DNA of 64,000 nt from Candidatus Daviesbacteria bacterium (lineage in GTDB: Bacteria; Patescibacteriota; Microgenomatia; Daviesbacterales; UBA10151): assembly GCA_021731695.1 (NCBI GenBank), contig JAKFWZ010000080.1, positions 34,021-98,020 on the forward strand, written 5' to 3'. Positions within the stretch are counted from its first letter, which is position 1. Every line of letters starts with the position of its first letter. Below the pieces are notes generated by a model that worked only from the letters and a program-made list of their open reading frames with translations, had not been told where the DNA came from and did no database searches. Shown here one piece after another: positions 686 through 55,860 of the stretch. The position numbers and the translations under genes were made by a program.

Positions 686-2107
686 TCAACTTTTTTCATA
701 ATACTTTTTTCCTTTTAATTTCTCCGGCAGAAAGTCTTCATCACCATACATTTGATATCCTTTTCCATAATCCAATTCCTTCATTAATTTCGTCGGCGCA
801 TTTCTCAAATTTAGGGGAATCGGTAGATGACCGTACTGCTTTACGTCCTCTAAGGCTTTAAAATATGCATCATAAGATCTGCGGTCCTTTTTAGCTGAGG
901 CCAAATAAACTACACCGTGGGCTAAATTAATCTGGCATTCAGGTAGCCCTATTGTTTCACAAGCTCTAAATACTTCATTTGCCACAACTAAAGCAGGCTG
1001 TGCCATTCCGATATCTTCTGAGGCAAAAATGACCATTCGTCTGGCAATAAACAAAGCATCTTCACCTGCATCAACCATCCTTGCAAGATAATACAAAGCC
1101 GCGTCAATATTAGAAGCCCGCATTGATTTTATAAACGCAGAAATTGTGTTGTAGTGGTCTTCACCCGCTTTATCATAAGAAAGTGCTTTTTTCTGAATCG
1201 CTTCCTCGATCAACTCTTTCGAGATAATACCCCTCATCCTAACCTTCTCCCTTAAGGGAGAAGGAACTAATGCACTCCCCTCTCTTTTGAGGGCTGAAGC
1301 AGTGAATCCTGCTTCAGCGGGTTCGACCCTTCGAGGGTCAGGGAGAGGTGGATGCGACTCAGGATTTAAGCCCTGTGCAGCTATCTCAAGCGTATTTAAA
1401 ATCATTCTGCCGTCGCCGTTTGATATCTGGATTAAAAGTTTTTTAGCATCTGGCATAATCTTCGCTTTTAATTCTTTAAGTCCTTTAACAATCATCAAAT
1501 TTAAATCTTCTTCGGTCAATTGCTCTAAAACAAAAACTCTTGATCTTGATAAAAGCGGATTTATAATTTCAAACGACGGGTTTTCTGTCGTGGCGCCAAT
1601 TAAAATTATTGTCCCGTTTTCTACGAAAGGCAAAAATGCATCCTGTTGAGCTTTATTAAATCTGTGAATTTCATCGATAAATATCACTACCTTGTCATCG
1701 CGTAGCGAGATCGCGGAGGCGTCATTACGAGCAAACAACGTTTGCGTAGTAATCTTAAAGATCGAAGGATCGCAAGCTTTGCTTATTTCACCAAGATCGC
1801 GACGTCTACTCGAAAGTCCAATGGACTTTCTCCCTCCTCGCGATGACTCAACTTGTTCAAATATCTTTTTTAACTCTGCAATTCCGGTCGTTACCGCAGA
1901 AAATTCCATAAATTCAGCTTCAATTTCACTCGCAATAATCCGCGCTAAAGTTGTTTTACCAACTCCGGGAGGTCCCCAAAAAATCATGGAAAAAATATTG
2001 CCGGATTTGATTGCTTTATAAAGTAATTTATCTTCGCCGATAATATGCTTTTGTCCAATAAATTCTGAAAGTTTTGAAGGTCTTAACCTGTCCGCCAGTG
2101 GATTCAT
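686..2107 (-). CDS. rarA: replication-associated recombination protein A (AAA+ ATPase) carrying two in-frame palindromic element insertions
   Basis: Walker [21 protein letters not shown] box, MgsA C-terminal domain; inserts 1694-1825 and about 1243-1352. Confidence 0.9.
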
Positions 2108-2225
2108 AATAGTCTCCTAACCATAAGCCGCGAACTCCGTGCCATACGCAATCCAATATATCCGAAAATTAAACGAATATCAAGAAATTTGATTATGAAA
2201 TTAGGATGGATTACACTTCTTAAAT

Positions 2226-2594
2226 ATGGAAAATCCATTCGCAAAAATACTTGATGCACTTGAGCAAAAAGCAGCCAAATGCCAAAAGGTAAGGCGTGCT
2301 CGGAGGGCTAACAGAATATCTTACAAATTGTTTCTTCGTCAGATGACTGAAGTAGGCAGGGACAAACTTTTAATCAAACTAACTGATCCAGTTACAGACA
2401 TACAACATGCGAGGGAAGTAGCAAAAATAATGAGGGTTGATGATCCGTCCGGTATCATGCCTGAACTTAGATGGATGCAACACAACGGATTACTAGTCAT
2501 GCACGGTCCTGAAAATCCGCCTGACTTAGACAGTATTATTATACCAACAGTTCCTGCTTTGCATCTAAGAACACTGCTTCTGCATCAAAAATGA
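2226..2594 (+). CDS. hypothetical protein (122 aa)
   Basis: ORF on opposite strand between rarA and cysS; no recognisable domain. Confidence 0.3.
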   Translation: MENPFAKILDALEQKAAKCQKVRRARRANRISYKLFLRQMTEVGRDKLLIKLTDPVTDIQHAREVAKIMRVDDPSGIMPELRWMQHNGLLVMHGPENPPDLDSIIIPTVPALHLRTLLLHQK

Positions 2595-3992
2595 TCAGGA
2601 AATTATCTTCACTTTAACTCCGTTAACAAAATCCTCTATTTCATACCCCATCTTCTTAATTTCTTTCCTTAATTCATCAGATTTTTCAAAATCTTTTTCT
2701 TCTCTCGCCTTTTCTCTTTGATTTAGCAGTTTTTGAACTTCCGCAGGTATCTCAATTTTTTTACCTACGTAATCAGAAAGTCCTAATCCCAAAACTTTAT
2801 CCATTTCTAAAATTGTTGCGGCTTTTTCGCCGGATGCAAAATCAGACTTCACCATTTCCCAAACAACAGCTAATGCTTTTGAAGTATTTAAATCCTCACC
2901 CAATGCATTAAGAAATTTCTCTGAAACATCCTTCGACACCTTCGACTCCTCCGACACATTCGAATTCCAATCCCTAACAATTTCTCTTAAATTATTTAGA
3001 GCAGTTTGACCGGCTTGCAAAGAATCCCAGGAAAAGTTTAGTTCTTCCCTATAATGAGCTGTTAAAAATAAATATCTTAGCGCTAGAGGATCAAACCCTT
3101 TAGCTCTTATATCATCAATAGTATAGAGATTTTTAAGAGATTTGCTCATTTTAACTTGATCAATTCTCAGGAAATTATGATGAACCCAATATCTGACAAA
3201 TTGCTCTCCGGTCGCTGCCTCTGATTGTGCTATCTCATTAGTATGATGGACAGGAATATGGTCTATTCCACCGGTGTGAATATCTAACGTATTGCCCAAA
3301 TACTCCATGCTCATAGCAGAACACTCTATATGCCAGCCGGGAAAACCTTCTCCCCACGGAGAATTCCATCTCATGACATGATCTTTGAAATGACCCACGG
3401 TAAAAAACCAAAGAGCAAAATCCGCAGGGTTTTTCTTTTTTGGATCAACTCTAACATCCTGTCTCACGCCAACAGTTTTTTCCTCTAATTTCTGACCTGT
3501 CAATTTTCCGTAGTTGGGAAATTTGGAAACATCAAAATAAATTGCCTGCTCTGTTTGATAAATAAAGCCTTTTTTTTCTAGAATTTGTATTAACTTGATC
3601 TGTTCTTTAATGTGATCTGTGGCTTTGACTAAATTATCAGGTGGATAAATATTTAAAGCTAAGGTAGATTTTATGAAATAATCAGTGAAATATTTGGCAA
3701 CTTCCCAAACCGATTCATTTCTTTCCTTAGCACCTTTTTCTAACTTATCATCTCCTTGATCTTCATCTGAAGTTAAATGCCCAACATCAGTTATGTTCAT
3801 CACATGTTTTACTTCATAACCATAAGCGACTAAAACTCTGACCAAAATATCATCGCTTGTATATTTTCTTAAATGACCAATATGGGTGTAGCCGTAAACA
3901 GTCGGTCCGCAGGTATACATTCCGACCTTCCTAGATTCCAGGGAAATAAATTCTTCAAGTTTACGGGATAAAGTGTTGTAAATCTTTAACAT
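2595..3992 (-). CDS. cysS: cysteinyl-tRNA synthetase
   Basis: class I HIGH motif (TCGPTVYGYTHIGH) and KMSKS motif; in-frame CGACTC-type short tandem repeat at 2931-2970. Confidence 0.92.
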   Translation of the reverse strand: MLKIYNTLSRKLEEFISLESRKVGMYTCGPTVYGYTHIGHLRKYTSDDILVRVLVAYGYEVKHVMNITDVGHLTSDEDQGDDKLEKGAKERNESVWEVAKYFTDYFIKSTLALNIYPPDNLVKATDHIKEQIKLIQILEKKGFIYQTEQAIYFDVSKFPNYGKLTGQKLEEKTVGVRQDVRVDPKKKNPADFALWFFTVGHFKDHVMRWNSPWGEGFPGWHIECSAMSMEYLGNTLDIHTGGIDHIPVHHTNEIAQSEAATGEQFVRYWVHHNFLRIDQVKMSKSLKNLYTIDDIRAKGFDPLALRYLFLTAHYREELNFSWDSLQAGQTALNNLREIVRDWNSNVSEESKVSKDVSEKFLNALGEDLNTSKALAVVWEMVKSDFASGEKAATILEMDKVLGLGLSDYVGKKIEIPAEVQKLLNQREKAREEKDFEKSDELRKEIKKMGYEIEDFVNGVKVKIIS

Positions 3993-4121
3993 GGGATGAT
4001 TTTAGTAAATGAGGATTACTTTTACCATATGGAAAATCGTCATTGCGATATCATGAAATGAAGAAGCAATCTCAGTACACTCTGGGATTGCCGCGTCGCA
4101 AGCTCCTCGCAATGACGCAAA

Positions 4122-4659: not shown

Positions 4660-4794
4660 AATGAAGCACCACGGGCTTACGCCCGTGGTTTCTTCTAGCT
4701 TCAAGCGGCTAAGGTCGCTTGTCCTCACACTACGTGTTCGGAAAATCTTCATCCGCGAGCTAATGCTCGTGGTTTTAAGATTTGTCGCTATAAA
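4660..4794 (+). repeat. 135-bp structured element, copy 1 (100% identical to 46761-46895)
   Basis: direct comparison of both loci; contains hairpins ccacgggc-ttac-gcccgtgg and cgcgagc-taat-gctcgtg. Confidence 0.9.
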
Positions 4795-5540: not shown

Positions 5541-5921
5541 ATGAAGAACGGCAAGATCGAAACTTTTACAGATTTGAATGTCTGGAGAGAGGGGCATAAA
5601 TTAGTAATCATGATTTATGCAATTACAAAAGGATTTCCCAGAGAAGAAGTTTATTCGTTAGTAGATCAGATGCGTAGAGCAGCAGCTTCAATTACTGCAA
5701 ATATAGCAGAGGGTTTCGGGAGACAAGGCTATAAAGAAAAAGTTCAGTTTTATTATCTGTCAAAAGGATCTTTAGCGGAATTAAAAAATTTCATTCTAAT
5801 CTCAAAGGATGTAGGGTATCTATCAGAAAAAGATTTTAATTTACTTGTAAGTCAAGCAAATTTGGTAGATCAAATCCTTTCGGGCTTTATCAGAAAAAGC
5901 AAAACATTCATTAATCGTTAA
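5541..5921 (+). CDS. four-helix-bundle protein (TIGR02436 / 23S rRNA IVS protein, Avd-like)
   Basis: typical 120-aa family signature (EGFGRQ, SKGSLAEL); flanked by ATTAATC-type inverted repeats. Confidence 0.75.
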   Translation: MKNGKIETFTDLNVWREGHKLVIMIYAITKGFPREEVYSLVDQMRRAAASITANIAEGFGRQGYKEKVQFYYLSKGSLAELKNFILISKDVGYLSEKDFNLLVSQANLVDQILSGFIRKSKTFINR

Positions 5922-6281: not shown

Positions 6282-6465
6282 CGAGCTTAGAAACAAAGAC
6301 CGTAAAGATTTTGCGAAGGAGCTATCAGGGGAAAAGCGGACTCTGACGATTAGTCAGATGTCCGAAGGGGCAACCTCCCCGATTAGCGACTGAGAAAAAT
6401 TAGGCCGACTTTCCAGCGAGCAGAGTTTTGGTACTTTTGCGGTCAAAAGTACAAAGAAAGAATTT
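6282..6465 (+). repeat. Family-2 about 200-bp repeat element, copy A (TTTTGCGGTCAAAAG hairpin family)
   Basis: shares the tcagggga core and terminal hairpin gtacttttg-cggt-caaaagtac with copies at 9986, 10201, 27355, 42484. Confidence 0.8.
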
Positions 6466-6505
6466 TGCCATCAAAAGTGGCTAAAAAATATAACTGGATC
6501 CCAGA

Positions 6506-7186
6506 TCAAGTCTGGGATGACAAAGTTATTGCCTCTGCTTTCACTTCATCCAATATCCCAAACTCTTCTTCTCTGATAACTCTCTCCGTTCTTTGAATCG
6601 GCACAAGCTCCCCAGATCTCTCAACCCCAGCCCAAAACTCTGCATTCACATTCCGCTCTATTTCTTTTGCTCTTTCTTGCAAACTTTCTGGTGTGTCATC
6701 TTTTAAAATATCAAATGGTTTGTATATGACTAAATCTCCTTTGTCAAACTCTGGCGAAACTAAATGAATACATATTTCACTATTGAATTCACGGTTTACT
6801 CTTTTAGAAAAATTGAGCACTGCAACATGAACCGCTAGACCTTTCATCCCTTTGCCCCCAAAGTCTGGATGACCGGGATCCAGAGGAGCAGAATGACTAT
6901 TCGTCATTTTGCCTTGATATTTATTCACAACATTTAAAGGAGTCAACAATTCCCAGCCATTATGAGAAATAAAGTCAACCTTATATTTATTAAAGATTGT
7001 AAGTAGCTCCTCACCAAATGCTTCAGATTCCTTACCCTGCCGCAGAACAATTTCGACCGGTACTCCTGCATTTTTTGCTCTTTGAATTATTCCTGCCTGA
7101 GGATTATTCGTTACAACAACCGCCGCATATTTAAACAGAACTTCTGCAGTTGTTCCCTGACCTGATGCTAAAATTGCTAATTTCAT
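6506..7186 (-). CDS. purN: formyltransferase, PurN-like (phosphoribosylglycinamide formyltransferase family)
   Basis: Formyl_trans_N fold (MKLAILASGQGT ...); divergent around the catalytic loop; clustered with folD and glyA. Confidence 0.6.
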   Translation of the reverse strand: MKLAILASGQGTTAEVLFKYAAVVVTNNPQAGIIQRAKNAGVPVEIVLRQGKESEAFGEELLTIFNKYKVDFISHNGWELLTPLNVVNKYQGKMTNSHSAPLDPGHPDFGGKGMKGLAVHVAVLNFSKRVNREFNSEICIHLVSPEFDKGDLVIYKPFDILKDDTPESLQERAKEIERNVNAEFWAGVERSGELVPIQRTERVIREEEFGILDEVKAEAITLSSQT

Positions 7187-7191
7187 ATGAC

Positions 7192-7271
7192 GTCATTCCC
7201 GCGGAGGCGGGAATCCAATAAATAATACTTGGTCGGAATAATCAAGATTGCGACGCTTCGCTCGCAATGAC
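7192..7271. repeat. Family-1 palindromic element (GTCATT...AATGAC modules), intergenic copy
   Basis: gtcattcccgcggaggcgggaat ... aatcaagattgcgacgcttcgctcgcaatgac; begins 6 nt after the purN start codon. Confidence 0.8.
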
Positions 7272-7300: not shown

Positions 7301-8224
7301 TTAACCATTTTTTGACGCCTCCAGTATATTTTCCATCAAAGAATAAATAGTCATTGGTCCGACTCCGCCGAATTTAGGGGTATACATTTTAGCTTTTTCA
7401 TAAGTACTGGGGTCAAAATCCCCTAGGCCTACATCTATTAATATTGCACCCTCTTTTATCATTTCGGAATTAACCAGACTCTGAACTCCGGTGCAGGAAA
7501 TAACCACATCTGCTTCCTGCAAATCATCAAAATTGCAGTCAGGATTTCTTTTATCGAGGCGCAGGATTTTATGGGCATTTTTCATACTTAATTGCTCAAC
7601 TAAAGGTTTTCCCACTTCGCCTTCTGAACCGACAACCCCAAAAACTGTTTCTTTATACCAATTTTCGTCATCGCGAAGCGAGATCGCGGAGGCGTCATCG
7701 CGAAGCGAGATCGCGGAGGCGTCATCGCGAGGTGCTTTCTCCGAAGCAATCTCAGAGCTTACGGGGATTGCTTCTTCACTTCGTGATATCGCAATGACTT
7801 CTTCCAGAATCTTCATAACACCCAAAACAGTCGCTGAGACAAATGGGCTGTCTTCTTTCATTCCGTCAATATCTTTTTTCGAATCAATTAAATTAATCAA
7901 ATCCCATTTTGTTTTATCTTTCAAAAAGTCTCTGCTCAGAGGAAGTTGAATCATTATCCCCTTAACCTCGTCGGTTTCGTTTAAACTCCGAATCTTTTTA
8001 GCAACATTTTCAAAGGAAGTATTAACAGAAAATTTCATAGGCAAAAAGTCGATGTAAAATTCATCGGCTTTTTTCTGCTTCATTTGGGTATATAAAAGAG
8101 AATTGGGATCACTGCCGATTAAAATGCTCACTACAAGAGGCCGTTCCTTTAAGGCACCTAATTTAGTTTTTAATTTGTCACCCAGCCTATCAGCTAAAGC
8201 TTTTCCGTCAATAATTTGAGACAT
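7301..8224 (-). CDS. folD: bifunctional methylenetetrahydrofolate dehydrogenase/cyclohydrolase with tandem in-frame element insertion
   Basis: FolD signature (IIDGKALA, QLPLP-like, GVGPMT); insert 7666-7803 encodes AIPVSSEIAS...[20 protein letters not shown]. Confidence 0.85.
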   Translation of the reverse strand: MSQIIDGKALADRLGDKLKTKLGALKERPLVVSILIGSDPNSLLYTQMKQKKADEFYIDFLPMKFSVNTSFENVAKKIRSLNETDEVKGIMIQLPLSRDFLKDKTKWDLINLIDSKKDIDGMKEDSPFVSATVLGVMKILEEVIAISRSEEAIPVSSEIASEKAPRDDASAISLRDDASAISLRDDENWYKETVFGVVGSEGEVGKPLVEQLSMKNAHKILRLDKRNPDCNFDDLQEADVVISCTGVQSLVNSEMIKEGAILIDVGLGDFDPSTYEKAKMYTPKFGGVGPMTIYSLMENILEASKNG

Positions 8225-10200: not shown

Positions 10201-10450
10201 GCGAGCATGAACGCAGCACCGTTGCTTTGCGAAGCAAAGGGCGTATTAGAATTCTTGAGTGAGCTGTCAGGGAGTGTCGGCTTCAGTTTACTGAAGACCG
10301 AAGTGGGCTCTGCACGAAGTGCGAGCGGGAGTCTAAATGACTCCCCGGAATGTCCCGACAAGTGAACGAAAGAATTTAGGCGACCGTTCCTGTCTCGCAG
10401 AGTTTTGCTTCTTTTGCGGTCAAAAGAAGAAAGAAAGAATTTTGTGATCA
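10201..10450 (+). repeat. Family-2 repeat element, copy C
   Basis: core tagaattcttgagtgagctgtcaggg and hairpin cttcttttg-cggt-caaaagaag. Confidence 0.8.
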
Positions 10451-10466
10451 AAGTAACAAGTAAGAA

Positions 10467-12122
10467 TTAACTATTAAAAATTTCTGAAGCTATTTTTATA
10501 ATTTCATCATCAGCTGCAACTTCCACATTCGCCACTTCCTCAATCCCAACCAATCTTTTGCCCAACCTTGTTGAAACTTTCACAGGCTTTCCTAAGACTT
10601 CAGCTAAAATTGACTCAAGTAAATTTCTTGATTTAGGCGCCTCCAGAATCCTTTGATGAAATGAATAGGGAACTTCGAGAATAACATTCGAACCATCACA
10701 ATTTACAACTTTTGTTTGTTTTAAAAGAGCCTCAAGCGAATAATTATAAGGCTTAATTGTTTCCAATATATAGGTCCATTTATCACTGATTACAATTACA
10801 TCGTCAGTCGACTGCATATCATCAACTGAAGGAATTGGCTCGGATTTGGACGATGGAGGATTGATGATAGAAAATGGGTTTTTGGGAATAGAAGGCTGAG
10901 AATAGACTTCTTTTTCTATTCTTCCAACTTCTACCTTCAAAACACTATCTTCCATCCTACTATATTCGACCTTCGGTTGTTCCTTTGATATGCTTTTCAC
11001 AACCGCAACTTCCAGAGGTAAAACTGCAAGAGTTGTGTACTTAAGTTGTTCTAAAACAGCCTGGAAATTTTCAATGTATGAAACAATTTGTCCGATCTCA
11101 GATTTATCCGCAAAACCCTTAACTTCTTCCCACTTTGCAGTTCCAAGTTCAGATTTAATTGGTTCAACAACTCCATTTTTAGTAAGCATCACAGACCTTA
11201 AAGTCTTCAAAACCAGGTTCGTGAATTCCTTTATATTCGCACCCTTTTCGCTCAAGCTATTAATCAATACTAAGCATTCAGTAGATTTTTTTTGCTGAAT
11301 TAAATTAAGTAAGTTCATAATCTCAGAAAAATCATTTGCTTTAAGCAATGCGCGAACTTCTTCCGGAGTTTTAACGCCTGATGAAGCTATCTGATCAAGA
11401 TTTTTAACAGCATCCCTGAAACTGCCTTCACTTCTTTCGGATATTAAGCTTAAGATTTCATCATTCAATTCCAATTTTTCTTTTTCTGCAATATCTTTAA
11501 GCACTGATTTAATTTGATCACCGGAAGCTAAATTGAAATCAAATCTTTGCACACGGGATAAAATTGTCTGAGGGATTTTTCGATCCTCAGTTGTGGCTAA
11601 AATAAACAAAACGTGTGCAGGCGGTTCTTCTAAAGTTTTCAGAAGCGCATTGAATGCTTCAGGAGTAAGCATATGAACTTCATCGATAATATAAACTTTC
11701 ATCCTCGCTGAGCTCGGAGAAAGTTTGATCTTTTCGCGCAAGTCACGGATATCATCAATTCCCCGGTTTGAAGCGGCATCAATTTCGATCAAGTCCATGT
11801 TAGAACCGTCGGTTATTGAGATGCAGGCTGAGCATTTATTGCAGGGAATCTTTAAGTCGCTAGAATCTAGAGTCGAGAGTCTAGGGGTTTCCTTTTTTTC
11901 ACTAGATTCTAGACTCTGGCGACTAGACTCCTGCGCTTCACAATTTACAAGCTTTGCCAGAATCCGGGCTGTTGAAGTTTTTCCTGATCCTCTTGGGCCG
12001 ACAAATAAGTATGCATGTCCTAATTTTCCCAGGCTAAATGCATTTAAAAGAGTTTTTTTAACATGATCCTGCCCGATAAGTTGTTCAAAATTTTGAGGTC
12101 GGTACTTGCGATAAAAAACCAT
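10467..12122 (-). CDS. dnaX: DNA polymerase III subunit gamma/tau
   Basis: MVFYRKYRPQ start, Walker A GPRGSGKTS, zinc module; in-frame palindrome at 11859-11932. Confidence 0.9.
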   Translation of the reverse strand: MVFYRKYRPQNFEQLIGQDHVKKTLLNAFSLGKLGHAYLFVGPRGSGKTSTARILAKLVNCEAQESSRQSLESSEKKETPRLSTLDSSDLKIPCNKCSACISITDGSNMDLIEIDAASNRGIDDIRDLREKIKLSPSSARMKVYIIDEVHMLTPEAFNALLKTLEEPPAHVLFILATTEDRKIPQTILSRVQRFDFNLASGDQIKSVLKDIAEKEKLELNDEILSLISERSEGSFRDAVKNLDQIASSGVKTPEEVRALLKANDFSEIMNLLNLIQQKKSTECLVLINSLSEKGANIKEFTNLVLKTLRSVMLTKNGVVEPIKSELGTAKWEEVKGFADKSEIGQIVSYIENFQAVLEQLKYTTLAVLPLEVAVVKSISKEQPKVEYSRMEDSVLKVEVGRIEKEVYSQPSIPKNPFSIINPPSSKSEPIPSVDDMQSTDDVIVISDKWTYILETIKPYNYSLEALLKQTKVVNCDGSNVILEVPYSFHQRILEAPKSRNLLESILAEVLGKPVKVSTRLGKRLVGIEEVANVEVAADDEIIKIASEIFNS

Positions 12123-12131
12123 AAGTTGGAA

Positions 12132-12227
12132 ATAAAACCAATTCCCAATATAACAAATAAAACCAATTCCCAATAATCGTTTTCATTGGGCATTTGGCAT
12201 TGGTTTATTGGATTTATTGGTTTATTA
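12132..12227. repeat. CCAAT/ATTGG-rich intergenic palindromic element
   Basis: aaaccaattcccaata x2 ... attgggcatttggcattggtttattgg. Confidence 0.6.
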
Positions 12228-12238
12228 AGTTAAAGAGA

Positions 12239-12670
12239 TTAGTCATGATGGATGCCTAGGAGATGACGGGTTCCGTGTTCAACCAAAAACCTTAATTCCT
12301 CTTCAATTGAAACTCCTTCGATCGCTGCATCTTTGATGATTTGAGGATATGAAATCAAAATATCTCCAAGCCTTAAAACTTTATCCGGCGCTTTTACGAA
12401 TCCTACTTTTGGAATATGTTGAAGGCTTGATGTTGTTGAAGGATCTTCGAGCGGAAAAGATAAAATATTTGTGGTTGCATCCTGACCGCGGAATTTTTTA
12501 TTGATCTCATGCATTTTGCGGTCGCCAACAACTGCGACACCTATTTCTAGATTTCCATGAACATGATGCTGTTTTAAAATCTCTAAAACTGTTGCCTGAA
12601 TTCCTAATTTATTAACCGGATACTTTGGATCTGAATTAACGACGATATTAATCATATATAAAAGCGTCAT
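12239..12670 (-). CDS. ybeY: rRNA maturation RNase YbeY
   Basis: HGTRHLLGIHHD zinc-binding motif near C-terminus; start codon overlaps a Family-1 element. Confidence 0.75.
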   Translation of the reverse strand: MTLLYMINIVVNSDPKYPVNKLGIQATVLEILKQHHVHGNLEIGVAVVGDRKMHEINKKFRGQDATTNILSFPLEDPSTTSSLQHIPKVGFVKAPDKVLRLGDILISYPQIIKDAAIEGVSIEEELRFLVEHGTRHLLGIHHD

Positions 12671-12744
12671 TGCGAGGAGTGAAACGACGTGGCAATCTTG
12701 ATTAAATCAGGATTCCTACGCGCATTTCATGCGCTCTGAATGAC
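12666..12744. repeat. Family-1 palindromic element, intergenic copy
   Basis: gtcattgcgagg ... ggcaatcttgatt ... aggattcctacgcgc-atttcat-gcgctctgaatgac. Confidence 0.8.
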
Positions 12745-13194: not shown

Positions 13195-13203
13195 TTTATA
13201 AGC

Positions 13204-13308
13204 GTCATTGCGAGGAACGACCTGCCTACCGTCAGGCAGGAGTGACGTGGCAATCTTGATTAAAGCAAAATCAGGATTCCTACGCGCACTCTGTGCGCTC
13301 TGAATGAC
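13204..13308. repeat. Family-1 palindromic element, intergenic copy
   Basis: gtcattgcgaggaacgacctgcctaccgtcaggcagg ... gcgctctgaatgac. Confidence 0.8.
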
Positions 13309-22140: not shown

Positions 22141-22608
22141 ATGATAGACAGAGCAGCCAACTCAGGAATCAACCCACTTCAGGAACGGGTAATTGTGCCT
22201 GTTGAAAAAGTTAACGGTTCCGCAAATCTGTATTTCAAAGACGAGGATTATCCGGTTTTAAAAACAGCACTTCATGCACGATCCGGAGGATGCGAACACC
22301 CTGAAGGATGTCCCATATCGAGCATGGACAGACTCACAATTGATCATTTCACACCCAGATGTATCGCTGCGATATTGGGTTGGACTTACGAAGAAGCTAA
22401 TCGTTTAGATAACTTGCAGTTGCTTTGCGTACCTCATCATATGGAAAAAGATGAGACAACTGAATCAAGACTAAGACAGCTCATGCGACAAACTGGGGGT
22501 GGTTTTGTGGGAAGAGATTTCTTCGACATAATGGAAGAAAAATATGGAATTACAAGACCTAAGGCTTTTTTTCAAACAATCCCCCAGCCACAGTTAACTC
22601 GCCCTTAA
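22141..22608 (+). CDS. HNH endonuclease (free-standing)
   Basis: HNH core DHFTPRC ... NLQLLCVPHH; 3' end overlaps thyA on the opposite strand. Confidence 0.7.
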   Translation: MIDRAANSGINPLQERVIVPVEKVNGSANLYFKDEDYPVLKTALHARSGGCEHPEGCPISSMDRLTIDHFTPRCIAAILGWTYEEANRLDNLQLLCVPHHMEKDETTESRLRQLMRQTGGGFVGRDFFDIMEEKYGITRPKAFFQTIPQPQLTRP

Positions 22609-23527
22609 GTCCCGGATGCGGATCGTAGCCGATAAGCTCAACGGAATCAGCCTTAAAATCATCAATGTCTTTAACTGTTTTATCAATCTTTACCTCAGGA
22701 AACTTTTTCGGTTTTCTTTTTAATTGCTCCTTAACCTGATCAATATGATTTTCATAAATATGCGCGTCACCGAATGTATGCACGAATTCTCCGGGCTTCA
22801 CTTTCAGGATTTGAGCCAGAACAATAGTTAACAATGCATAAGAAGCAATGTTAAACGGAACTCCTAAGAATAAATCAGCGCTTCTTTGATAAAGCTGGAG
22901 ATATAATTTCCCGTCTTTAATCGACATCTGGAACATGTTGTGGCAAATCGGGAAACGCGAAGCATCATCAAGCCGCGCCATGTTATATAAATATTCAGGA
23001 TTCCATGAATTGACTATCGCGTTGCGGGCATAAGGATCCTCGCGAAGTTCAGAAACTGCCCATTTTAACTGGTCAATTCCCTTACCATACCTCGTAGGCC
23101 AACTTCTCCACATCTCCCCGTAAATCCTGGGTAATTCCCCCCATTTTTTAGCAAACTTCGGATCCCCCGCAATCTTTTCAATAAACTCCTCTTTTGTGAT
23201 TATTTGTTTCTTGTTACTTGTATCTTGTTTCTTAGCGAAGATCTTATAAGGATAATCGTCCCAAATATGGACATTATTATCGACGAGATATTTTATATTT
23301 GTGTCCCCTTTCATGAACCAGACAAGCTCATGAATCACCCCTTTCCAGTAAACCTTTTTTGTAGTGAGAATAGGGAAGCCTTTTGAAAGATCATAACGGG
23401 TTTGACGGCCGAATAAAGAAAGTGATCTCACGCCCGTTCCACGATCAATATTCCAAACCCCGTCCTTTAAAACTTCTTTGAGTAAATCGAGGTATTGATA
23501 TTCGGGGTGTTTAGTAGATTGCTTCAT
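22559..23527 (-). CDS. thyA: thymidylate synthase
   Basis: catalytic PICH-NMFQ, LYQRSADLFLGVPFNIASYALL (Asn gives dUMP specificity), C-terminal GYDPHPG. Confidence 0.9.
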   Translation of the reverse strand: MKQSTKHPEYQYLDLLKEVLKDGVWNIDRGTGVRSLSLFGRQTRYDLSKGFPILTTKKVYWKGVIHELVWFMKGDTNIKYLVDNNVHIWDDYPYKIFAKKQDTSNKKQIITKEEFIEKIAGDPKFAKKWGELPRIYGEMWRSWPTRYGKGIDQLKWAVSELREDPYARNAIVNSWNPEYLYNMARLDDASRFPICHNMFQMSIKDGKLYLQLYQRSADLFLGVPFNIASYALLTIVLAQILKVKPGEFVHTFGDAHIYENHIDQVKEQLKRKPKKFPEVKIDKTVKDIDDFKADSVELIGYDPHPGLKGELTVAGGLFEKKP

Positions 23528-23551
23528 TGCTGAATTGCTAAATTGTTATTC

Positions 23552-23650
23552 GTCATTGCGATATCACGTAGTGAAGAAGCAATCTCAGTCTCTCTGGGAT
23601 TGCCGCGTCAGCCAGAGGCTTCCTCGCAATGACGCTTCGCTCGCAATGAC
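23552..23650. repeat. Family-1 palindromic element in thyA 5' leader
   Basis: gtcattgcgatatcacg ... gaagcaatctcag ... cctcgcaatgac gcttcgctcgcaatgac. Confidence 0.8.
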
Positions 23651-25591: not shown

Positions 25592-25826
25592 GTCATTACG
25601 AGGAACGACCTGCCTGACGGCAGGCAGGAGCGACGTAGTAATCTTGATTCTGTCATTCCGGTGAAAACCTGCCTGACGGCAGACAGGCCGGAATCCAGGC
25701 AAAAACATCTGGATCCCAGATCTCCCCTTGTCAAAATGCTTTGCATTTTGCAAGCGACCTCCTGGCTACGCCAGTCCGGTAGTCTGGGATGACAATCGAG
25801 ATTGCGACGCTAACGCTCGCAATGAC
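25592..25826. repeat. Family-1 composite palindromic element (5 nested modules)
   Basis: gtcattacgagg ... ctgcctgacggcaggcagg ... gtcattccgg ... ccggaatccagg ... ctgggatgac ... ctcgcaatgac. Confidence 0.8.
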
Positions 25827-26480: not shown

Positions 26481-26643
26481 TCAGAGCGCATGTAATGCGC
26501 GTAGGAATCCTGATTATTTTTGTCATTCCGGTGAAAACCGGAATCCAGGCTTTGTTTTTCTGGATCCCGAATCAAGTTCGGGATGACAACAATCAAGATT
26601 GCTCTTTCGAAAGTCGTTCAGACTTTCTCACGCTCGCAATGAC
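26476..26643. repeat. Family-1 composite palindromic element; first module overlaps dcd start codon
   Basis: gtcattcagagcgc-atgtaat-gcgcgtaggaatcct ... gtcattccggtgaaaaccggaatccagg ... gttcgggatgac ... ctcgcaatgac. Confidence 0.8.
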
Positions 26644-27354: not shown

Positions 27355-27530
27355 GCGAGCTTGAAACAAAGCGCGTATAGAATTTTTGAGCGAGTTATCA
27401 GGGGATTTCGGTTTTTTGCGATTAGCAAAAAAGCCGAAGGGGTAAGGTTCCCCGATTAGCGAACGAAAAAATTTAGCGCGACTTTCCGCGAGTAGAGTTT
27501 TGCTACTTTTGCGGTCAAAAGTAGGAAGAA
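27355..27530 (+). repeat. Family-2 repeat element, copy D
   Basis: tagaatttttgagcgagttatcagggga ... gctacttttg-cggt-caaaagtag; followed by a Family-1 module at 27541-27589. Confidence 0.8.
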
Positions 27531-27581
27531 AAATAAACAAAATCAAGATTGCCACGCCACTTCGTGGTCTCGCAATGACAA

Positions 27582-34617: not shown

Positions 34618-34624
34618 GATTTAA

Positions 34625-34765
34625 ATAAACCAATAACCCAATATACAAATAAACCAATTCCCAATGGAATTGTCTTGGGACGTTGTCTAAAACCAATTCC
34701 CAATTTTACTTTTTAAATTTTATTGGGCATTTGGCATTGGGTTATTTGTTTATTGGTTTATTCAT
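34625..34765. repeat. CCAAT/ATTGG-rich intergenic palindromic element
   Basis: aaaccaattcccaatgg ... aaaccaattcccaat ... attgggcatttggcattgggttatttgtttattgg. Confidence 0.6.
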
Positions 34766-35151
34766 TTGACTCTAATAACTTCTCCCTCTAAATCAAGTTC
34801 AACAAAATGGGTCGCCCTTCCTTCTATAAAAGCCGGACATTGATTTTCAGGAAAATCGTCTAAATCCTGTCTCGGATTATGAGCCAAATCTGCAACCCAA
34901 TCCTGATCTAAATCATTTGTTAAACAGGGACCCGTTGAAAAATCTATTCCAATTGCTTTTCGATCCCCGTAAAGTTTTTGCGCCCGGCCAACCATATTAT
35001 CAATTTCATCCGAAAGTCCGGGTTTATATGTTCCTCTTACTGCAGAATTAAATGGATTTGTTTCGTGAACGTAAACAATTAATAGAGAAACAATAGCAAT
35101 TACAGAAAGCACTAATATAAGTAGCTTAGCCCTTGAAACCATATAGACCAA
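34762..35151 (-). CDS. hypothetical protein with N-terminal signal/TM
   Basis: 129 aa; hydrophobic N-terminus LLILVLSVIAIVSLLIV. Confidence 0.4.
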   Translation of the reverse strand: MVYMVSRAKLLILVLSVIAIVSLLIVYVHETNPFNSAVRGTYKPGLSDEIDNMVGRAQKLYGDRKAIGIDFSTGPCLTNDLDQDWVADLAHNPRQDLDDFPENQCPAFIEGRATHFVELDLEGEVIRVK

Positions 35152-39878: not shown

Positions 39879-39887
39879 TATTTAATA

Positions 39888-39990
39888 AAACCAATAAACA
39901 AATAACCCAATAAAACCAATTCCCAATTTATTTTTCCTGCCTTTTATTTGGCATTGGTTTTATTTGCATATTGGCTTCATTGGTTTATTC
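39888..39990. repeat. CCAAT/ATTGG-rich intergenic palindromic element
   Basis: aaaccaataaacaaataacccaataaaaccaattcccaat ... ttggcattggttttatttgcatattggcttcattgg. Confidence 0.6.
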
Positions 39991-42483: not shown

Positions 42484-42700
42484 TGAACGCAGCGCCGTTT
42501 GAGTTTAAAGTTTTTGTCTAAGAACAAAGCGCGTTTAGAATTTTTGAGTGAGTTGTCAGGGGATTTCGGTTTTTTGTGATTAGCAAAAAAGCCGAAGGGG
42601 CAGCCTCCCCGACTAACGAACAAAAAAATTTAGCGCGACTTCTCGACAAAAAGAGTTTTGCTACTTTTGCGGTCAAAAGTAGAAGAAAGAAAAGAAAAAA
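42484..42700 (+). repeat. Family-2 repeat element, copy E
   Basis: tagaatttttgagtgagttgtcagggga ... gctacttttg-cggt-caaaagtag; Family-1 module 42701-42739 follows. Confidence 0.8.
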
Positions 42701-42747
42701 ATCGAGATTGCCACGTCGCCTTTGGCTCCTCGCAATGACAAACATTT

Positions 42748-43959
42748 ATGACTAACATTATTAAACTTCCTGGACTAATCGATACTCACGTCCATTTACG
42801 CGAACCCGGTCTTACGCATAAAGAAGACTTTGAGTCAGGCACAAAAGCTGCAATTGCAGGCGGATACACAGTTGTTTTAGATATGCCCAACAACCCAAAC
42901 CCAATTACCAATCCCGAAGCTTTAGCTGAGAAAATAAAATTAGCTGAGGGCGTCATTGCGATATCACGCAATGAAGAAGCAATCCCAGCAAGCTCTGAGA
43001 TTGCCGCGTCGCCACGTTCAGTTAACATGAATGTGGCTCCTCGCAATGACGATACAAATACCCTCGCCCTCAAGGGAGAGGGCCAGGGTGAGGGGTATTC
43101 CAGAATCTACTGTGACTTAGGTTTTCATTTCGGCGCCTCAGAAGAAGCAATTAAATATTTCGGGGATGTTCAGGAAAAAGTCTTTGGTTTAAAGGTTTAT
43201 ATGAACCACACAACCGGTGAACTATTGATAGAAGACAAAAAATTACTTAATGAGATATTTGAAGCCTGGCCCAAAGATAAAGTATTAATGGTTCATGCAG
43301 AAACAGAAACTTTAGCTATGGCTATAGAACTGGCGAAAAAACATGGCAACACTCTTCACGTTTGCCACGTTGCGAGGAAAATTGAACTGGAATTAATTAA
43401 GCAGGCAAAATCAGAAGGGCTTCCAATCACTTGCGAAGTTTCTCTTCATCATCTTTATTTAACCCACGAAGATGAGGAAAGACTCAGGCATTTCGGAATG
43501 ATGCGCCCACCCTTAGCCTCGCCTGAAGATGTGCAATATCTTTGGGATAATATTGATTCAATCGATACGATAGCTTCGGATCACGCACCTCACACAAAGG
43601 AAGAAAAGGAAAGCGAGAAAGTTGTAAATGGTGTGCCAGGATTAGAAACCAGTCTTCCTCTATTACTTAACGCGATTAATGATGAAAGATTAACGATTAA
43701 TGATTTAATCAGACTAACTTCTGAAAATCCCAGAAAGATATTTAATATCCCTAAACAGCAGGATACATATGTAGAGGTTGATCTCGACGCAGAATGGACA
43801 ATTTCTAATGACGGATTATTTACAAAAGCGGGCTGGACACCTTTCGCAGGAATGAAAATAAAAGGAAAAATCCTAAAAACAGTTTTAAGAGGAGAGACAG
43901 TTTTTGAGAATGGTGAAATTAAAAATGCTCCTTCAGGAAAAGTTATTTTCCCAAAATGA
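42748..43959 (+). CDS. pyrC: dihydroorotase with in-frame element insertion
   Basis: metal ligands DTHVHLREPG, amidohydrolase fold; insert 42952-43100 encodes GVIAISRNEEAIPASSEIAAS ... APRND ... LALKGEGQGEG. Confidence 0.85.
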   Translation: MTNIIKLPGLIDTHVHLREPGLTHKEDFESGTKAAIAGGYTVVLDMPNNPNPITNPEALAEKIKLAEGVIAISRNEEAIPASSEIAASPRSVNMNVAPRNDDTNTLALKGEGQGEGYSRIYCDLGFHFGASEEAIKYFGDVQEKVFGLKVYMNHTTGELLIEDKKLLNEIFEAWPKDKVLMVHAETETLAMAIELAKKHGNTLHVCHVARKIELELIKQAKSEGLPITCEVSLHHLYLTHEDEERLRHFGMMRPPLASPEDVQYLWDNIDSIDTIASDHAPHTKEEKESEKVVNGVPGLETSLPLLLNAINDERLTINDLIRLTSENPRKIFNIPKQQDTYVEVDLDAEWTISNDGLFTKAGWTPFAGMKIKGKILKTVLRGETVFENGEIKNAPSGKVIFPK

Positions 43960-46471: not shown

Positions 46472-47104
46472 CTACAAATCTACCTCACCAGATTCAATCA
46501 CCATCACCCAATCTTTTATTCCCAACTGCTTAATGTATTTTCTTAGCGGATCTTTACAATCCCTCTTTGATGCCCAAAGACTTTTCTGCCAAGGTACGAA
46601 CCCCCATTCCCTAAGTCTAAATCTAAGTAAATTCCTGGCTTCTTTCCTTTTTTCCGGAATATCAAACGAAACCAAAGTCCACTTGCCATTCCACTCTTTA
46701 TCGTCTACTTCTTTTAGTTTTGCCCAAATCGCCTTGTCTAAACCTGTATCGCTTAACTTTAATGAAGCACCACGGGCTTACGCCCGTGGTTTCTTCTAGC
46801 TTCAAGCGGCTAAGGTCGCTTGTCCTCACACTACGTGTTCGGAAAATCTTCATCCGCGAGCTAATGCTCGTGGTTTTAAGATTTGTCGCTATAAAAGCTT
46901 TTCTTCGTCAATAAAATCAACTAAACCTTTTTCCCTTAGCCTCTTCAGCGCCTGAGCAAGGAGGGGTTTCTTAATCATTTTGGGATAACCATACAAATAC
47001 TTGTGTGGATGATTGATAAAATCTTCAAATTTTACATAGCCGTCAACAGATTTCTCAAGTGCCAATAAGATTGTATTCGTTAAAGGTTTTTTTGTTCCGC
47101 CCAT
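46472..47104 (-). pseudogene. wHTH plus Cas2-like gene split by insertion of the 135-bp element (paralog of 59025-59570)
   Basis: N-terminal piece 46889-47104 (LLAQALKRLREKGLV) and C-terminal piece 46472-46777 (KWTLVSFDIPEKRKEARNLL ... WQKSLW) are in the same frame; the element introduces TAG/TGA/TAA stops. Confidence 0.6.
46761..46895 (+). repeat. 135-bp structured element, copy 2 (100% identical to 4660-4794)
   Basis: exact identity over 135 bp; length is 45 codons. Confidence 0.9.
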
Positions 47105-53177: not shown

Positions 53178-53306
53178 GTCATTCCCACCGGACCATCAAA
53201 GCTGGGAGGTCGCTTGCAAAAATTGTCATTCAGAGCCCCGAAGGGGCGTGGAATCCTGATTTAAATATAATCAAGATTGCGACGTCACTTTGTTCCTCGC
53301 AATGAC
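53178..53306. repeat. Family-1 composite palindromic element
   Basis: gtcattcccaccggaccatcaaagctgggaggtcgcttgc ... gtcattcagagccccgaaggggc ... aatcaagattgcgacg ... cctcgcaatgac. Confidence 0.8.
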
Positions 53307-53315
53307 ATCAATTTT

Positions 53316-53579: not shown

Positions 53580-53581
53580 TT

Positions 53582-54358: not shown

Positions 54359-54877
54359 ATGATACTGGTAATTGCGCCCGATAATAAATTAAGGGTTCAG
54401 ACAAAGCATATAAAAAAATTCTCGCCCAAATATCAACAGACTATTAAAGATATGGTAAAGCTGACTAAAACTTTCGTTGATCCGGAAGGTGTTGGACTGG
54501 CTTCAACTCAAGTTGGTTTAGACGAGCAATATTTCGTTGCCAAAAAAGACGACGGTAAATTTAAAGCCTACTTTAATCCTAAAATATTAAAGAGTTCAAA
54601 GGTTACAAAAGTTTATACTGAAGGCTGCTTATCGATTCCAAATTATTGGGGTGAAGTTTCAAGACACTTATGGGTTGATGTTGAATATCAGGATATTAAT
54701 GGCAATAAAATTAAAGAAAGATTGAAGGGTTTAGAGGCACATATTTATCAGCATGAATGCGATCATTTAAAAGGCGTTTTATTTATGGATCATATTTTAG
54801 AGAAGAAAACTAAACTGTATAAAGTTGTCGGAAAAGATCAAACAGGAGCGGATGTTTATGAGCAAGTGCCGCTCTAG
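54359..54877 (+). CDS. def: peptide deformylase
   Basis: motifs GVGLASTQVG, EGCLSIP, QHECDHL. Confidence 0.88.
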   Translation: MILVIAPDNKLRVQTKHIKKFSPKYQQTIKDMVKLTKTFVDPEGVGLASTQVGLDEQYFVAKKDDGKFKAYFNPKILKSSKVTKVYTEGCLSIPNYWGEVSRHLWVDVEYQDINGNKIKERLKGLEAHIYQHECDHLKGVLFMDHILEKKTKLYKVVGKDQTGADVYEQVPL

Positions 54878-54993
54878 CTTCGCTAGAGAAATTTCAAGAA
54901 ACAAGTTACAAGTGTCCAATTAATGACCAAATAATAATTTTCAATTTGAATATTTGAATTTGTGATTTGTTTGTTTCTTGTTTCTTGTTTCTT

Positions 54994-55860
54994 ATGAAAA
55001 TTATATTCCTTGGCACTCCTGATTACGTTGATCCAATAATCCAAACTCTTGATGAAAACTTCGAGCTCGTCAAAGTCATTCGCTCTTCCTCCGACTCTTT
55101 CGACTCATTCGACTCTTTGCAGCCTGACCTTTTAGTTGTCGCTTCATTTGGAAAAATAATTCCTCAATCAATTCTGGAAATTCCAAAGTTCGGAGCAATA
55201 AATATTCACCCTTCACTTTTGCCTAAGTACCGCGGTCCTTCACCTCTTCAAAATCAGATTTTAGACGGAGTTACTGATTCTGCAATTTCGTTTATTTTAA
55301 TGGACAGCGAAATGGATCACGGACCGATATTAAAACAAGTGCCTTTTCAGATTTCAGAAAATGACACGTTCCAGAGTCTTTGCGAAAAAATGTTTGCCGA
55401 GTCTGCAAAATATATTTCAGAAGTTGTTCAGAGTTTAGCTGATGGCAGTATTCAAAAAACAGCGCAAAATGAAGAAGACGCAACTGTTACTAAATTAGTT
55501 GAAAAAGAAGACGGATACTTCGATATCGATAACCCTCCGGCTCCAGAAAAATTACAAAAAATGATCCGCGCATATTATCCTTGGCCAGGAACCTGGACAA
55601 AATGGAATGGGAAAATTGTGAAGTTTTTACCTAACCCCTCCGTCATCGCGAAGCGAGATCGCGAAGGCGTCATTGCGAGACCACGAAGTGGCGAAGCAAT
55701 CTCAGAAAGCGAATCCAATAAATCTATCAGCACTGGGATTGCTTCGGAGAAAGCACCTCGCAATGACGCACCTTTCTTAGTGCAAATGGAAGGGAAAAAA
55801 GCCACAGACTTTAAATCATTCCTAAACGGCTACCCTGATTTTCCTCTCAAATCTATTTGA
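54994..55860 (+). CDS. fmt: methionyl-tRNA formyltransferase with in-frame element insertions
   Basis: formyltransferase N-domain (MKIIFLGTPD, NIHPSLLPKYRG); inserts 55087-55118 and 55642-55767 encode SVIAKRDREGVIARPRSGEAISESE ... IASEKAPRNDA. Confidence 0.8.
   Translation: MKIIFLGTPDYVDPIIQTLDENFELVKVIRSSSDSFDSFDSLQPDLLVVASFGKIIPQSILEIPKFGAINIHPSLLPKYRGPSPLQNQILDGVTDSAISFILMDSEMDHGPILKQVPFQISENDTFQSLCEKMFAESAKYISEVVQSLADGSIQKTAQNEEDATVTKLVEKEDGYFDIDNPPAPEKLQKMIRAYYPWPGTWTKWNGKIVKFLPNPSVIAKRDREGVIARPRSGEAISESESNKSISTGIASEKAPRNDAPFLVQMEGKKATDFKSFLNGYPDFPLKSI

Follow-up and report, generated by a model that had tools for sequence, protein, structure and literature searches.

A probable REP/RPE-type palindromic repeat family with in-frame copies in genes of a Candidatus Daviesbacteria contig

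Short palindromic repeats were analysed in a 64,000-nt stretch of a contig of Candidatus Daviesbacteria (JAKFWZ010000080.1, positions 34,021 to 98,020), a lineage of the Candidate Phyla Radiation (CPR); the whole stretch is referred to below as the window. Copies of one repeat family were found between genes and, in frame, within rarA, folD, topA, pyrC and fmt. The closest described systems are the REP sequences (repetitive extragenic palindromes) with a CGTC tag and the Rickettsia palindromic elements (RPEs). In CGTC-tagged REPs, an unpaired CGTC tag (or TGTC or CCTC) stands at one end of a hairpin; the stem of 8-9 bp starts with A-T pairs at positions 1 and 2, the loop has 4-5 nt, and the short unpaired tail has the consensus CCA. 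These REPs occur mostly as inverted pairs, have no dedicated transposase, and are mostly intergenic, just 3' of genes (Di Nocera et al. 2013, PMC3733652). In the same survey, which covers five phyla and no CPR genome, CGTC-1 and CGTC-4 of Rickettsia conorii are RPE-6 and RPE-4, respectively, CGTC-1 of Neisseria is dRS3, and intragenic in-frame pairs or clusters encode 20-82 aa, often in DNA-metabolism genes.

RPEs are 105-150 bp long, possess terminal inverted repeats of about 12 bp, and lie in intergenic regions as well as in frame in housekeeping genes (Ogata et al. 2000, 2002; PMC2229807, PMC10969869). The RPE insert of R. conorii gmk is reported to be translated and tolerated (cited in PMC2229807). 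REPINs are inverted doublets of REP hairpins that act as the replicating unit and undergo bursts within a genome (Bertels & Rainey 2011, PMC3116915); they carry a GTAG tag, and the gene of a REP-associated tyrosine transposase (RAYT, an IS200/IS605-like Y1 transposase) is flanked by the same REPs (PMC3116915). Occasional in-frame fusion into conserved genes is also described for the enterobacterial repetitive intergenic consensus/repeat unit (ERIC/RU), the 107-bp Correia element and the Wolbachia palindromic element (WPE) (Delihas 2007, PMC2229807, PMC2759123). A 2024 review of prokaryotic MITEs (miniature transposable elements with inverted repeats) places the RPEs at the extreme of in-frame fusion and speculates on their occurrence elsewhere, with Patescibacteria unmentioned. 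The preliminary description of the window, which reported the five genic copies, knew of no such account for this lineage. In agreement, no description of REP/RPE-type repeats or in-frame insertions in CPR/Patescibacteria was found in open-access papers and bioRxiv, and the box sequences of the present family appeared in that literature solely as unrelated primers.

Anatomy of the repeat family and its genic copies

The segments found in the five genes very probably represent a palindromic, non-autonomous repeat of REP/RPE type, whose in-frame copies are tolerated in genes. The terminal box GTCATYGCGA was matched 26 times in the window, compared with 0.10 expected from dinucleotide-preserving shuffles, and the inner box GAAGCAATC was matched 12 times, compared with 0.97 expected from shuffles. 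The basic unit is a hairpin made up of a (C/T)GTC tag, ATTGCGAG, a variable arm, CGAAGCAAT and a C(T/C)CAG tail. In the paired form, two units are inverted with their tags outward and occupy about 75-100 nt, which can be folded as one long hairpin or as a cruciform. Six full pairs were present in the window, with nhmmer E-values of 1e-17 to 1e-22; four of them were genic and two intergenic, giving a genic share of 4/6, or 5/7 with a divergent cluster in rarA counted. A 27-nt single unit (CGTCATCGCGAAGCGAGATCGCGGAGG) stands ahead of the pair in folD, topA and fmt and also heads the rarA cluster. The 27-nt units of folD and topA are 100% identical and their 60-nt cores 93% identical, and this identity suggests that in folD, topA and fmt the composite of 27-nt unit and pair travelled as a single piece and not long ago.

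The tags at the element ends in the window were CGTC in 11 of 14 cases, AGTC in 2 and TGTC in 1. All units of the window open with ATTGC, ATCGC or ATTCC and close with ..AAT or ..GAT; the ATTGCGAG units end in CTCAG, CCCAG or CTTG, and the canonical units, of the published CGTC type, end in CCAG or CCAA. When folded as single-stranded DNA, the element showed an outer stem of 11-13 bp (CGTCATTGCGA/TCGCAATGACG), a central hairpin of 13 bp and two small side arms, with DNA-fold z-scores of -4.4 to -6.3 for five copies (topA, pyrC, fmt and both intergenic pairs). Position 4 of the single-unit stem covaries, as ATTGC..GCAAT was counted 303 times, ATTAC..GTAAT 6 times and G..T never (Fisher p = 2e-11; the copies share descent, and the independent events are few, at least 2). 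The ATTAC..GTAAT set includes two copies in the window as well as cyanobacterial copies. A hairpin was predicted in 64 of 120 variable arms with a mean energy barely below that of shuffles; many of the arms are GCGNAGC, too short for the energy model.

Host open reading frames (ORFs) were assigned by Pfam domains matched on both flanks of each insert. Reading of the window placed the five stretches, with their sequences, where the preliminary description had them, and the peptide signatures it had named were recovered in the translations. The folD gene (7301-8224, minus strand, 307 aa; THF_DHG_CYH and THF_DHG_CYH_C) carries its insert at 7666-7798 (plus strand, residues 143-186), consisting of two 27-nt units (7666-7719) followed by the inverted pair (7720-7798); the tandem duplication of its core, already recognized earlier, is exact, with 2.4 copies of 27 nt and 100% matches. 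In topA (29714-31921, minus strand, 735 aa; Toprim, Topoisom_bac and Zn_ribbon_Top1), the insert at 30538-30641 (plus strand, residues 428-461) comprises one 27-nt unit (30538-30564) and the inverted pair (30565-30641), and its DNA fold had an energy of -33 kcal/mol (z = -6.3). The fmt gene (54967-55860, plus strand, 297 aa as called, with an uncertain start codon; Formyl_trans_N and Formyl_trans_C) contains a 27-nt unit (55641-55667) and an inverted pair (55668-55768) within the insert at 55641-55768 (plus strand, residues 226-267; z = -6.2), oriented relative to its host gene opposite to the folD and topA copies.

The pyrC gene (42748-43959, plus strand, 403 aa; Amidohydro_1) encodes a dihydroorotase of the CAD type, the best solved relative being the human CAD dihydroorotase domain (E = 6.5e-104). 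Its insert has two parts. The first, at 42951-43051 (plus strand, residues 69-101; z = -4.8, E = 1e-22), is an inverted pair with an extra hairpin nested at 43011-43037, and the second, at 43051-43104 (plus strand), is an unrelated G/C-rich palindromic repeat beginning with DTNTLALKGEGQGEGY. Together they account for 51 aa missing from orthologs, and the insert size of about 33-46 aa given before is exceeded in pyrC on account of this second repeat.

The copy in rarA/mgsA (686-2107, minus strand, 473 aa; MgsA_C, AAA_assoc_2 and AAA) had been placed at 1694-1825. It is in frame as reported; it extends over 1693-1847 (plus strand) and is a divergent cluster of three units, namely the 27-nt unit (1693-1719), then a ATTACGAG..GTAAT unit at 1720-1754, and at 1795-1847 a long-armed ATCGCGA unit in inverted orientation. 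This cluster was not detected by the hidden Markov model (HMM) of the paired element, and the ATTAC/GTAAT change in it is compensatory. The description of the hosts as essential genes is too strong for some of them, for example rarA, which is dispensable in E. coli.

Inserts made of inverted pairs and 27-nt composites begin with Val-Ile-Ala and end with Arg-Asn-Asp or Arg-Asp-Asp. The VIA...RND phase was read in 4 of the 5 genic copies, and rarA reads SSR at one end. A fixed reading phase was considered and rejected, since rarA deviates and copies in other phyla occupy all three phases.

The family had first been described from its genic copies, which are real, and at least 11 intergenic copies, comprising two full pairs and at least nine single or mixed units, had been overlooked. 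The pair at 4038-4117 (plus strand; z = -4.4, E = 9e-23) belongs to the same subfamily as the pyrC copy (family D9). The other lies at 23551-23634, followed by an extra half unit up to 23650 (plus strand; z = -5.5). Because the same DNA is also present between genes, the family is a dispersed repeat and does not represent ancestral protein sequence, as the preliminary description had argued from the peptides.

Insertion status, reading frame and fate of the inserts

That the segments are lineage-specific insertions was upheld by alignment, with empty sites in orthologs at 63-80% identity for TopA, FolD, PyrC and Fmt and by comparison of RarA with E. coli MgsA. The homologs closest to TopA, with identities of no more than 80%, bear the name Candidatus Daviesbacteria (CPR, Microgenomates). 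The TopA site lies between DQTSVDV.A and F/YxLRATGS. A short native loop occupies it in 10 of 42 aligned orthologs; in others the peptides at this site are of the same family (VIATPRSGEAI..RND, VIARSETTKQSHEIAALPPVARND) or belong to quite different repeats. In 88 parsed orthologs the loop had 12 aa or fewer in 37 and 20 aa or more in 34. In a distance tree computed without the insert, the TopA of the window was grouped with empty-site orthologs, and the segment does not occur in E. coli TopA (residues 417-421).

FolD orthologs are mostly 262-265 aa in length, compared with 307 aa in the window, and the insert is located in the linker before the Rossmann domain. The site is empty in P0123-P0128 and others, including the closest branch, P0127. 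In the distance tree without the insert, the FolD of the window is sister to an empty ortholog and the insert-bearing orthologs are scattered, a distribution that implies at least 3-4 gains at one site. For PyrC, an exact empty site (between ..KLAE and GRVY..) with no remnant was found in ten loci (L122-L125 and L127-L132), and three orthologous loci carry another repeat family at the same site. Most CPR orthologs of Fmt have 3-4 aa where the protein of the window has 42 aa, and two orthologs have other repeat peptides at the same point. Comparisons were also made with solved structures for FolD, Fmt, dihydroorotase, MgsA and TopA, by which the extra segments of FolD, dihydroorotase and TopA were confirmed. 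RarA has two extra segments relative to E. coli MgsA (3pvs), and the alignment of the two proteins continues on either side of them; residues 96-138 (approximately 43 aa), just before the Walker B strand, are not in E. coli MgsA.

It is extremely improbable that the segments are no insertions at all and represent ancestral or convergent low-complexity protein sequence, or an artefact of metagenome assembly. The contig is metagenome-derived and the exact proteins were found in one assembly only, which would fit an artefact. Both kinds of explanation are nevertheless excluded by the empty sites in orthologs, by the occurrence of the same DNA in intergenic regions and by the continuity of the flanks, since the sequence on either side of each copy is the same gene read in frame, unlike a chimeric join at a repeat. 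In addition, related inserts were present at the same sites in independent assemblies.

The location of the inserts in surface loops, which had been anticipated, agrees with structure prediction. The AlphaFold2 model of FolD had a mean predicted local distance difference test score (pLDDT) of 91.6; residues 152-185 approximately were modelled as coil with a pLDDT of 50-76, and the flanks reached 94 or more. In the AlphaFold model of TopA (pLDDT 70 overall), residues 435-458 had a pLDDT below 50 and formed the tip of a well-predicted beta-hairpin. The inserts are thus predicted to sit in loops between well-folded parts.

Several observations weigh against reading the segments as mobile repeats inserted into genes. 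The folD and rarA copies fold no better than shuffled sequences (z = -1.4 and -1.9), and the insertion in RarA is judged against a single distant homolog, E. coli MgsA. No transposase, RAYT or integrase was found among the 73 ORFs of the window, and no recurrent family was found among 127 ORFs (185 Pfam families) flanking 119 copies listed elsewhere. The closest empty-site orthologs are 73-87% identical in DNA, those of the window itself 73-76%, a distance at which exact junctions, target preference and duplications are beyond resolution. In the best filled/empty pair, P0008/P0023 (86.7% identical), the copy of P0008 is flanked by an ambiguous 6-nt repeat (GTGGAC/GTGGAT). Finally, the same loop holds different repeat families across orthologs, and some copies could therefore be replacements of one repeat by another.

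Such replacement, in which the common GTCAT...ATGAC ends would have allowed gene conversion or recombination with other copies in the genome at long-standing landing pads instead of insertion into naive sites, is rather unlikely as an explanation of the copies. It draws on the finding of different repeat families at the same residue position in TopA (20 aa or more in 34 of 88 orthologs), FolD, PyrC and Fmt, on the tag and AT-initiated stem common to all families, and on the pair P0008/P0023, in which an 81-nt repeat substitutes for 18 nt of native loop and is not simply added. However, the FolD and TopA of the window group with empty-site orthologs in the trees, for which a recent gain is the simpler account, and the empty sites of PyrC are exact and leave no remnant. 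The recurrence is explained equally well by a selective filter, in which one loop of each protein tolerates extra residues.

The inserts of folD, topA, pyrC and fmt are 132, 102, 99 and 126 nt long, all multiples of three and free of stops in the host frame. As had been reported, all five host frames, including that of rarA across its 154-nt cluster, are stop-free, and the opposite strand of the four measured copies has one open frame or more. In contrast, both intergenic pairs carry stops in the frame used by the genes, and one of them, from GTCAT to ATGAC (23552-23633), is 82 nt long, which is not a multiple of three. This pattern of stop-free genic copies with lengths in multiples of three, compared with stop-bearing intergenic copies, favours translation and disfavours splicing or bypass; from it, we infer that the inserts would be translated together with the host proteins.

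Removal of the segments before the mature protein is formed, as an intron, as an intein or by ribosomal bypass of the hairpin, is very improbable. The elements form strong hairpins, and hairpin-containing coding gaps are bypassed in gene 60 of phage T4 and in the 'byp' elements of yeast mitochondria, which provide precedents for such a process. CPR genomes are also known for introns in rRNA and tRNA genes (preprint 10.1101/2025.07.03.662931). Removal would lift the exact constraint on frame and stops, which is seen in the genic copies but not in the intergenic ones. Inteins, for which a length of about 130 aa or more, Cys/Ser at the N-terminus and His-Asn before Cys/Ser/Thr at the C-terminus were expected, were rejected, as the inserts have 33-51 aa, far under intein size, start with Val and lack terminal Cys/Ser and His-Asn. 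Group I or II introns, for which a structured RNA of about 200 nt or more matching the intron covariance models was expected, were rejected as well: the elements are 99-154 nt long, and in Rfam no intron or other RNA family matched them, either at the gathering thresholds or at E up to 1. The earlier supposition that the segments are retained in the protein was thereby strengthened.

There is also little likelihood that the inserts have been domesticated, that is, kept by selection as an mRNA hairpin serving stability or translation or as an interaction loop. Arguments in its favour are the compensatory change that keeps the hairpin structure, the stop-free state of several element frames, the intergenic single units situated 3-33 nt past stop codons like terminators or stabilisers, and the bias of intragenic REPs to DNA-metabolism genes (Di Nocera et al., PMC3733652), to which rarA and topA would conform. 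These are opposed by the lack of the inserts in the closest orthologs, by the variation of their sequence among orthologs, by their predicted disorder and by the occurrence of the same peptide in unrelated enzymes. Moreover, the one RPE insert tested, that of R. conorii gmk, had neutral or slightly harmful effects (Abergel 2006, as cited in PMC2229807).

Mobilisation, distribution and other repeats of the window

With the segments taken as mobile REP/RPE-type repeats, the following course is proposed. The repeat family would have undergone a burst in the Candidatus Daviesbacteria lineage, with landings both between and inside genes, and the genic survivors would be those having a length in multiples of three, no stop in the host frame and a position in a tolerant loop or linker. 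The surviving copies would be transcribed and translated with their hosts, yielding hydrophilic, largely disordered loops of 33-51 aa that are probably neutral or slightly harmful. In folD, the 27-nt unit would have been duplicated later by slippage, the nine codons per unit having kept the frame. Mobility is deduced from the distribution of the copies, and the mobilising enzyme would be encoded elsewhere and act in trans. In analogy to REP/RAYT and IS200/IS605, this enzyme may work on hairpins of single-stranded DNA, cut at the tag and leave no target duplication. No consistent direct repeat or target duplication was found around seven copies of the window. An origin as a MITE derived from an insertion sequence (IS) was rejected, as there was no consistent target-site duplication and no parent IS was seen in the window.

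The repeated use of one loop per protein may mean that selection admits that loop, or that later repeats replace earlier ones or nest into them; it could also reflect insertion aimed at DNA that is prone to hairpins or already bears repeats, with the families turning over afterwards. As a tentative and broader proposal, REP-type palindromes would be a systematic source of lineage-specific loops in core enzymes of CPR/Microgenomates, with landing-pad loops (the beta-hairpin tip of TopA, the interdomain linker of FolD, a site in PyrC and the C-terminal domain of Fmt) used repeatedly by different families, and a very widespread activity would mobilise or maintain CGTC-tagged REPs. The ATTGCGAG family is near-identical from Rickettsia to cyanobacteria to CPR, and this points to such an activity.

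The density of the box was 0.41/kb in the window and approximately 0.03/kb in 22 related CPR contigs (about 230 kb). In the syntenic contig L120 (SHMT-folD-purN-ybaB..recR), the folD site is empty, and the folD-purN spacer has 61 nt without repeats, compared with 114 nt in the window, where it consists essentially of two REP units. One of these is a single unit of the ATTGCGA type at 7246-7271 (minus strand; TGTC ATTGCGA GCGAAGCG TCGCAAT) and the other a canonical CGTC unit at 7191-7214 (plus strand; CGTC ATTCCCGC GGAG GCGGGAAT CCA), and both are missing from L120.

An exact-pattern scan of one genome per species gave at least 119 loci, all of them with the boxes of the present family. Hosts among the matches listed were Cyanobacteria, Chloroflexi, Omnitrophota, Bacteroidota, Nitrospirota, Planctomycetota, Proteobacteria (including Rickettsia tamurae and Bradyrhizobium), Firmicutes and CPR (Falkowbacteria, Saccharibacteria and Peribacteria). 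Among the 119 copies listed, 73 had an inverted partner within 110 nt, and the base before GTCAT was T in 67 and C in 38. Copies inside spanning ORFs of at least 150 aa numbered 19 of 120 among the matches listed. In L001, L016, L027, L059 and L073, the ATTGCGAG repeat was in frame in real-looking genes, judged by eye from the flanking residues; by the same inspection these ORFs are GuaA-like, PriA-like, aminomethyltransferase-like, ArgS-like and an N6-methyltransferase. The GuaA-like ORF is from a gammaproteobacterium, the PriA-like one from Dehalococcoidia and the ArgS-like one from Saccharibacteria, and Omnitrophota is also a host. Thus this genome is not alone in harbouring the repeat in frame.

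The 27-nt unit followed by GTCAT had no match in the metagenomes of the Joint Genome Institute (JGI), and the composite of 27-nt unit and pair appears private to this lineage. The 44-aa peptide alone gave no match in an index of 5.8 billion proteins, a result bounded by the word index, since full-length searches revealed related peptides in orthologs. A viral vector was considered and found no support, with 15 matches in 2.9 million viral contigs.

Besides the full pairs, several intergenic units were located in the window. A further canonical unit, TGTC ATCCCAGA CTTGA TCTGGGAT CCAG, lies at 6498-6522. A mixed pair made of a ATTGCGAGG unit and an inverted ATTCAGAGC unit occupies 12665-12744 (plus strand), and a second mixed pair 13203-13308. 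A single unit at 25800-25826 (minus strand) lies 7 nt past the stop codon of dcd, and similar single units were found at 26597-26643, 27547-27579, 42706-42739 and 53275-53306. The dcd unit, those at 26597-26643 and 27547-27579 and the unit at 7246-7271 stand 3-33 nt past the stop codons of dcd, tmk, pyrG and folD, the position expected of terminator-like or mRNA-stabilising hairpins. The canonical CGTC unit in the folD-purN spacer (7187-7230) had a sub-threshold Rfam match to the Francisella small RNA FtrB (25 bits, with a cut-off of 66), which is probably a chance match or a REP embedded in the FtrB family.

Other repeat-like segments were noticed within genes. A second in-frame insert of rarA, at 1229-1372 (residues 246-293), is a chain of three hairpins with a DNA-fold energy of -30.7 kcal/mol; it belongs to a different repeat family and is not in E. 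coli MgsA. TopA has a second hypervariable site at residues 97-137 (31511-31633; pLDDT below 50), where orthologs have from 0 to approximately 40 aa and carry other repeat-like peptides (SPLTLNALP, SSILKKPSPILNH). The Pfam alignments of thyA (22559-23527), dnaX (10467-12173) and pyrG (27582-29216) are approximately 23-45 residues longer than the profiles, and dnaX has an inverted repeat at 11858-11935; these genes may contain further in-frame repeat insertions.

An intergenic module of approximately 190 nt occurs in four copies, all on the plus strand (27365-27545, 42523-42705, about 6285-6475 and about 10255-10452). It has conserved hairpins (CAGGGG..CCCCG; GAGTTTTGCTACTTTTGCGGTCAAAAGTAG), and a single ATTGCGA-type REP follows directly after two of the copies. 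The module had no match in Rfam, and its orientation to neighbouring genes varies, an indication of a repeat at the DNA level instead of a cis-acting RNA. A 135-nt stretch with two GC-rich hairpins (CCACGGGCTTACGCCCGTGG; CCGCGAGCTAATGCTCGTGG) is present at 4660-4794 and 46761-46895, 42 kb apart, with 100% identity. Another, unrelated family consists of A/T-rich periodic repeats (AAACCAATAACCCAATA..) with long imperfect inverted repeats and occurs in several intergenic spacers (12135-12174, 34619-34767, 39884-39989 and 60233-60374). Between recR and ybaB, a gene for a 23S rRNA intervening-sequence protein was identified at 5541-5921 (plus strand; PF05635, E = 5e-35); judged by synteny it is a lineage-specific arrival, as L120 has a different ORF there.

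Relation to known systems and significance

Selfish palindromes of the REP/RPE type that are tolerated in frame are known, and the finding is an extension of a known phenomenon and not a surprise. What is new is the lineage, CPR/Daviesbacteria, the family with its 27-nt composite, and the repeated occupation, by different families, of the same loops of four core enzymes. Selfish DNA inside protein genes, best known in Rickettsia, thus extends to CPR, another group with small genomes and dependence on hosts. The repeats account for part of the length variation and of the odd low-complexity loops in CPR core proteins, and loops derived from them can be masked by annotators and structure predictors. 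The shared loops of the four enzymes constitute a natural map of insertion-tolerant sites, and the recurrent sites offer a means to ask whether target choice or selective filtering is at work. The near-identical boxes across phyla sharpen the question of what mobilises CGTC-tagged REPs.

REPINs resemble the present family in the inverted doublet that can be folded as one hairpin and in the burst within a genome. To our knowledge, REPINs are essentially extragenic. The Daviesbacteria family differs from them in its CGTC/TGTC tag, and no Y1 transposase was found in the window or recurring beside copies elsewhere. ERIC/RU, the Correia element and WPE are likewise small palindromic mobile sequences with open frames; they differ in being MITE-like, in having TA target duplications, whereas no duplication was seen at the Daviesbacteria copies, and in their unrelated sequences. 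The genic fraction of full pairs is also much higher in the window than for these elements.

With the superfamily of CGTC-tagged REPs, the Daviesbacteria family shares the tag, the A-T opening of the stem, the inverted pairs and the absence of a dedicated transposase. The canonical units of the window (ATTCCCGC-GGAG-GCGGGAAT and ATCCCAGA-CTTGA-TCTGGGAT) have the published 8-9 bp stem and 4-5 nt loop, and the R. conorii peptides VIPAKAGI and SFPRKRES (both CGTC-1) and VIPWLDHGI match this unit type (PMC3733652, table); the unit at 7191-7214 shares its stem type with the two CGTC-1 peptides. In the genic ATTGCGAG family, by contrast, the stem has a base of 5 bp (ATTGC/GCAAT) and an internal loop, the variable arm is 8-22 nt long, and the tail appears to be C(T/C)CAG, compared with CCA in the published units; the peptides VIAR, VIAS, ARND and PRND and the string ATTGCGA were not found in the supplementary tables of PMC3733652. 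In view of the departing stem and loop geometry and, apparently, tail, together with the shared tag, opening and pairing, the genic family is best filed as a further family of the CGTC superfamily, a structural variant outside the four published families.

The comparison with RPEs drawn in the preliminary description proved apt, as the CGTC/TGTC tag and AT-initiated stem are those of the superfamily that holds RPE-4 and RPE-6, and a full pair with the same ATTGCGAG/GAAGCAAT boxes occurs in Rickettsia tamurae (L037). Further features in common are the palindromic structure, terminal repeats of about 12 bp, dispersal between genes, in-frame fusion with a family-specific peptide at a fold-compatible position, and a bacterial host with a small genome and dependence on a host of its own. 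The differences are that the host belongs to CPR (Candidatus Daviesbacteria) and not to Rickettsia, that the elements are 78-132 nt long instead of 105-150 bp and visibly combine small REP units, two or three in number, with a 27-nt unit specific to the lineage, and that translation was shown for the RPE of gmk, whereas for the Daviesbacteria inserts it is predicted from their frames. Compared with RPEs by description, the Daviesbacteria family works like an RPE without being named one.

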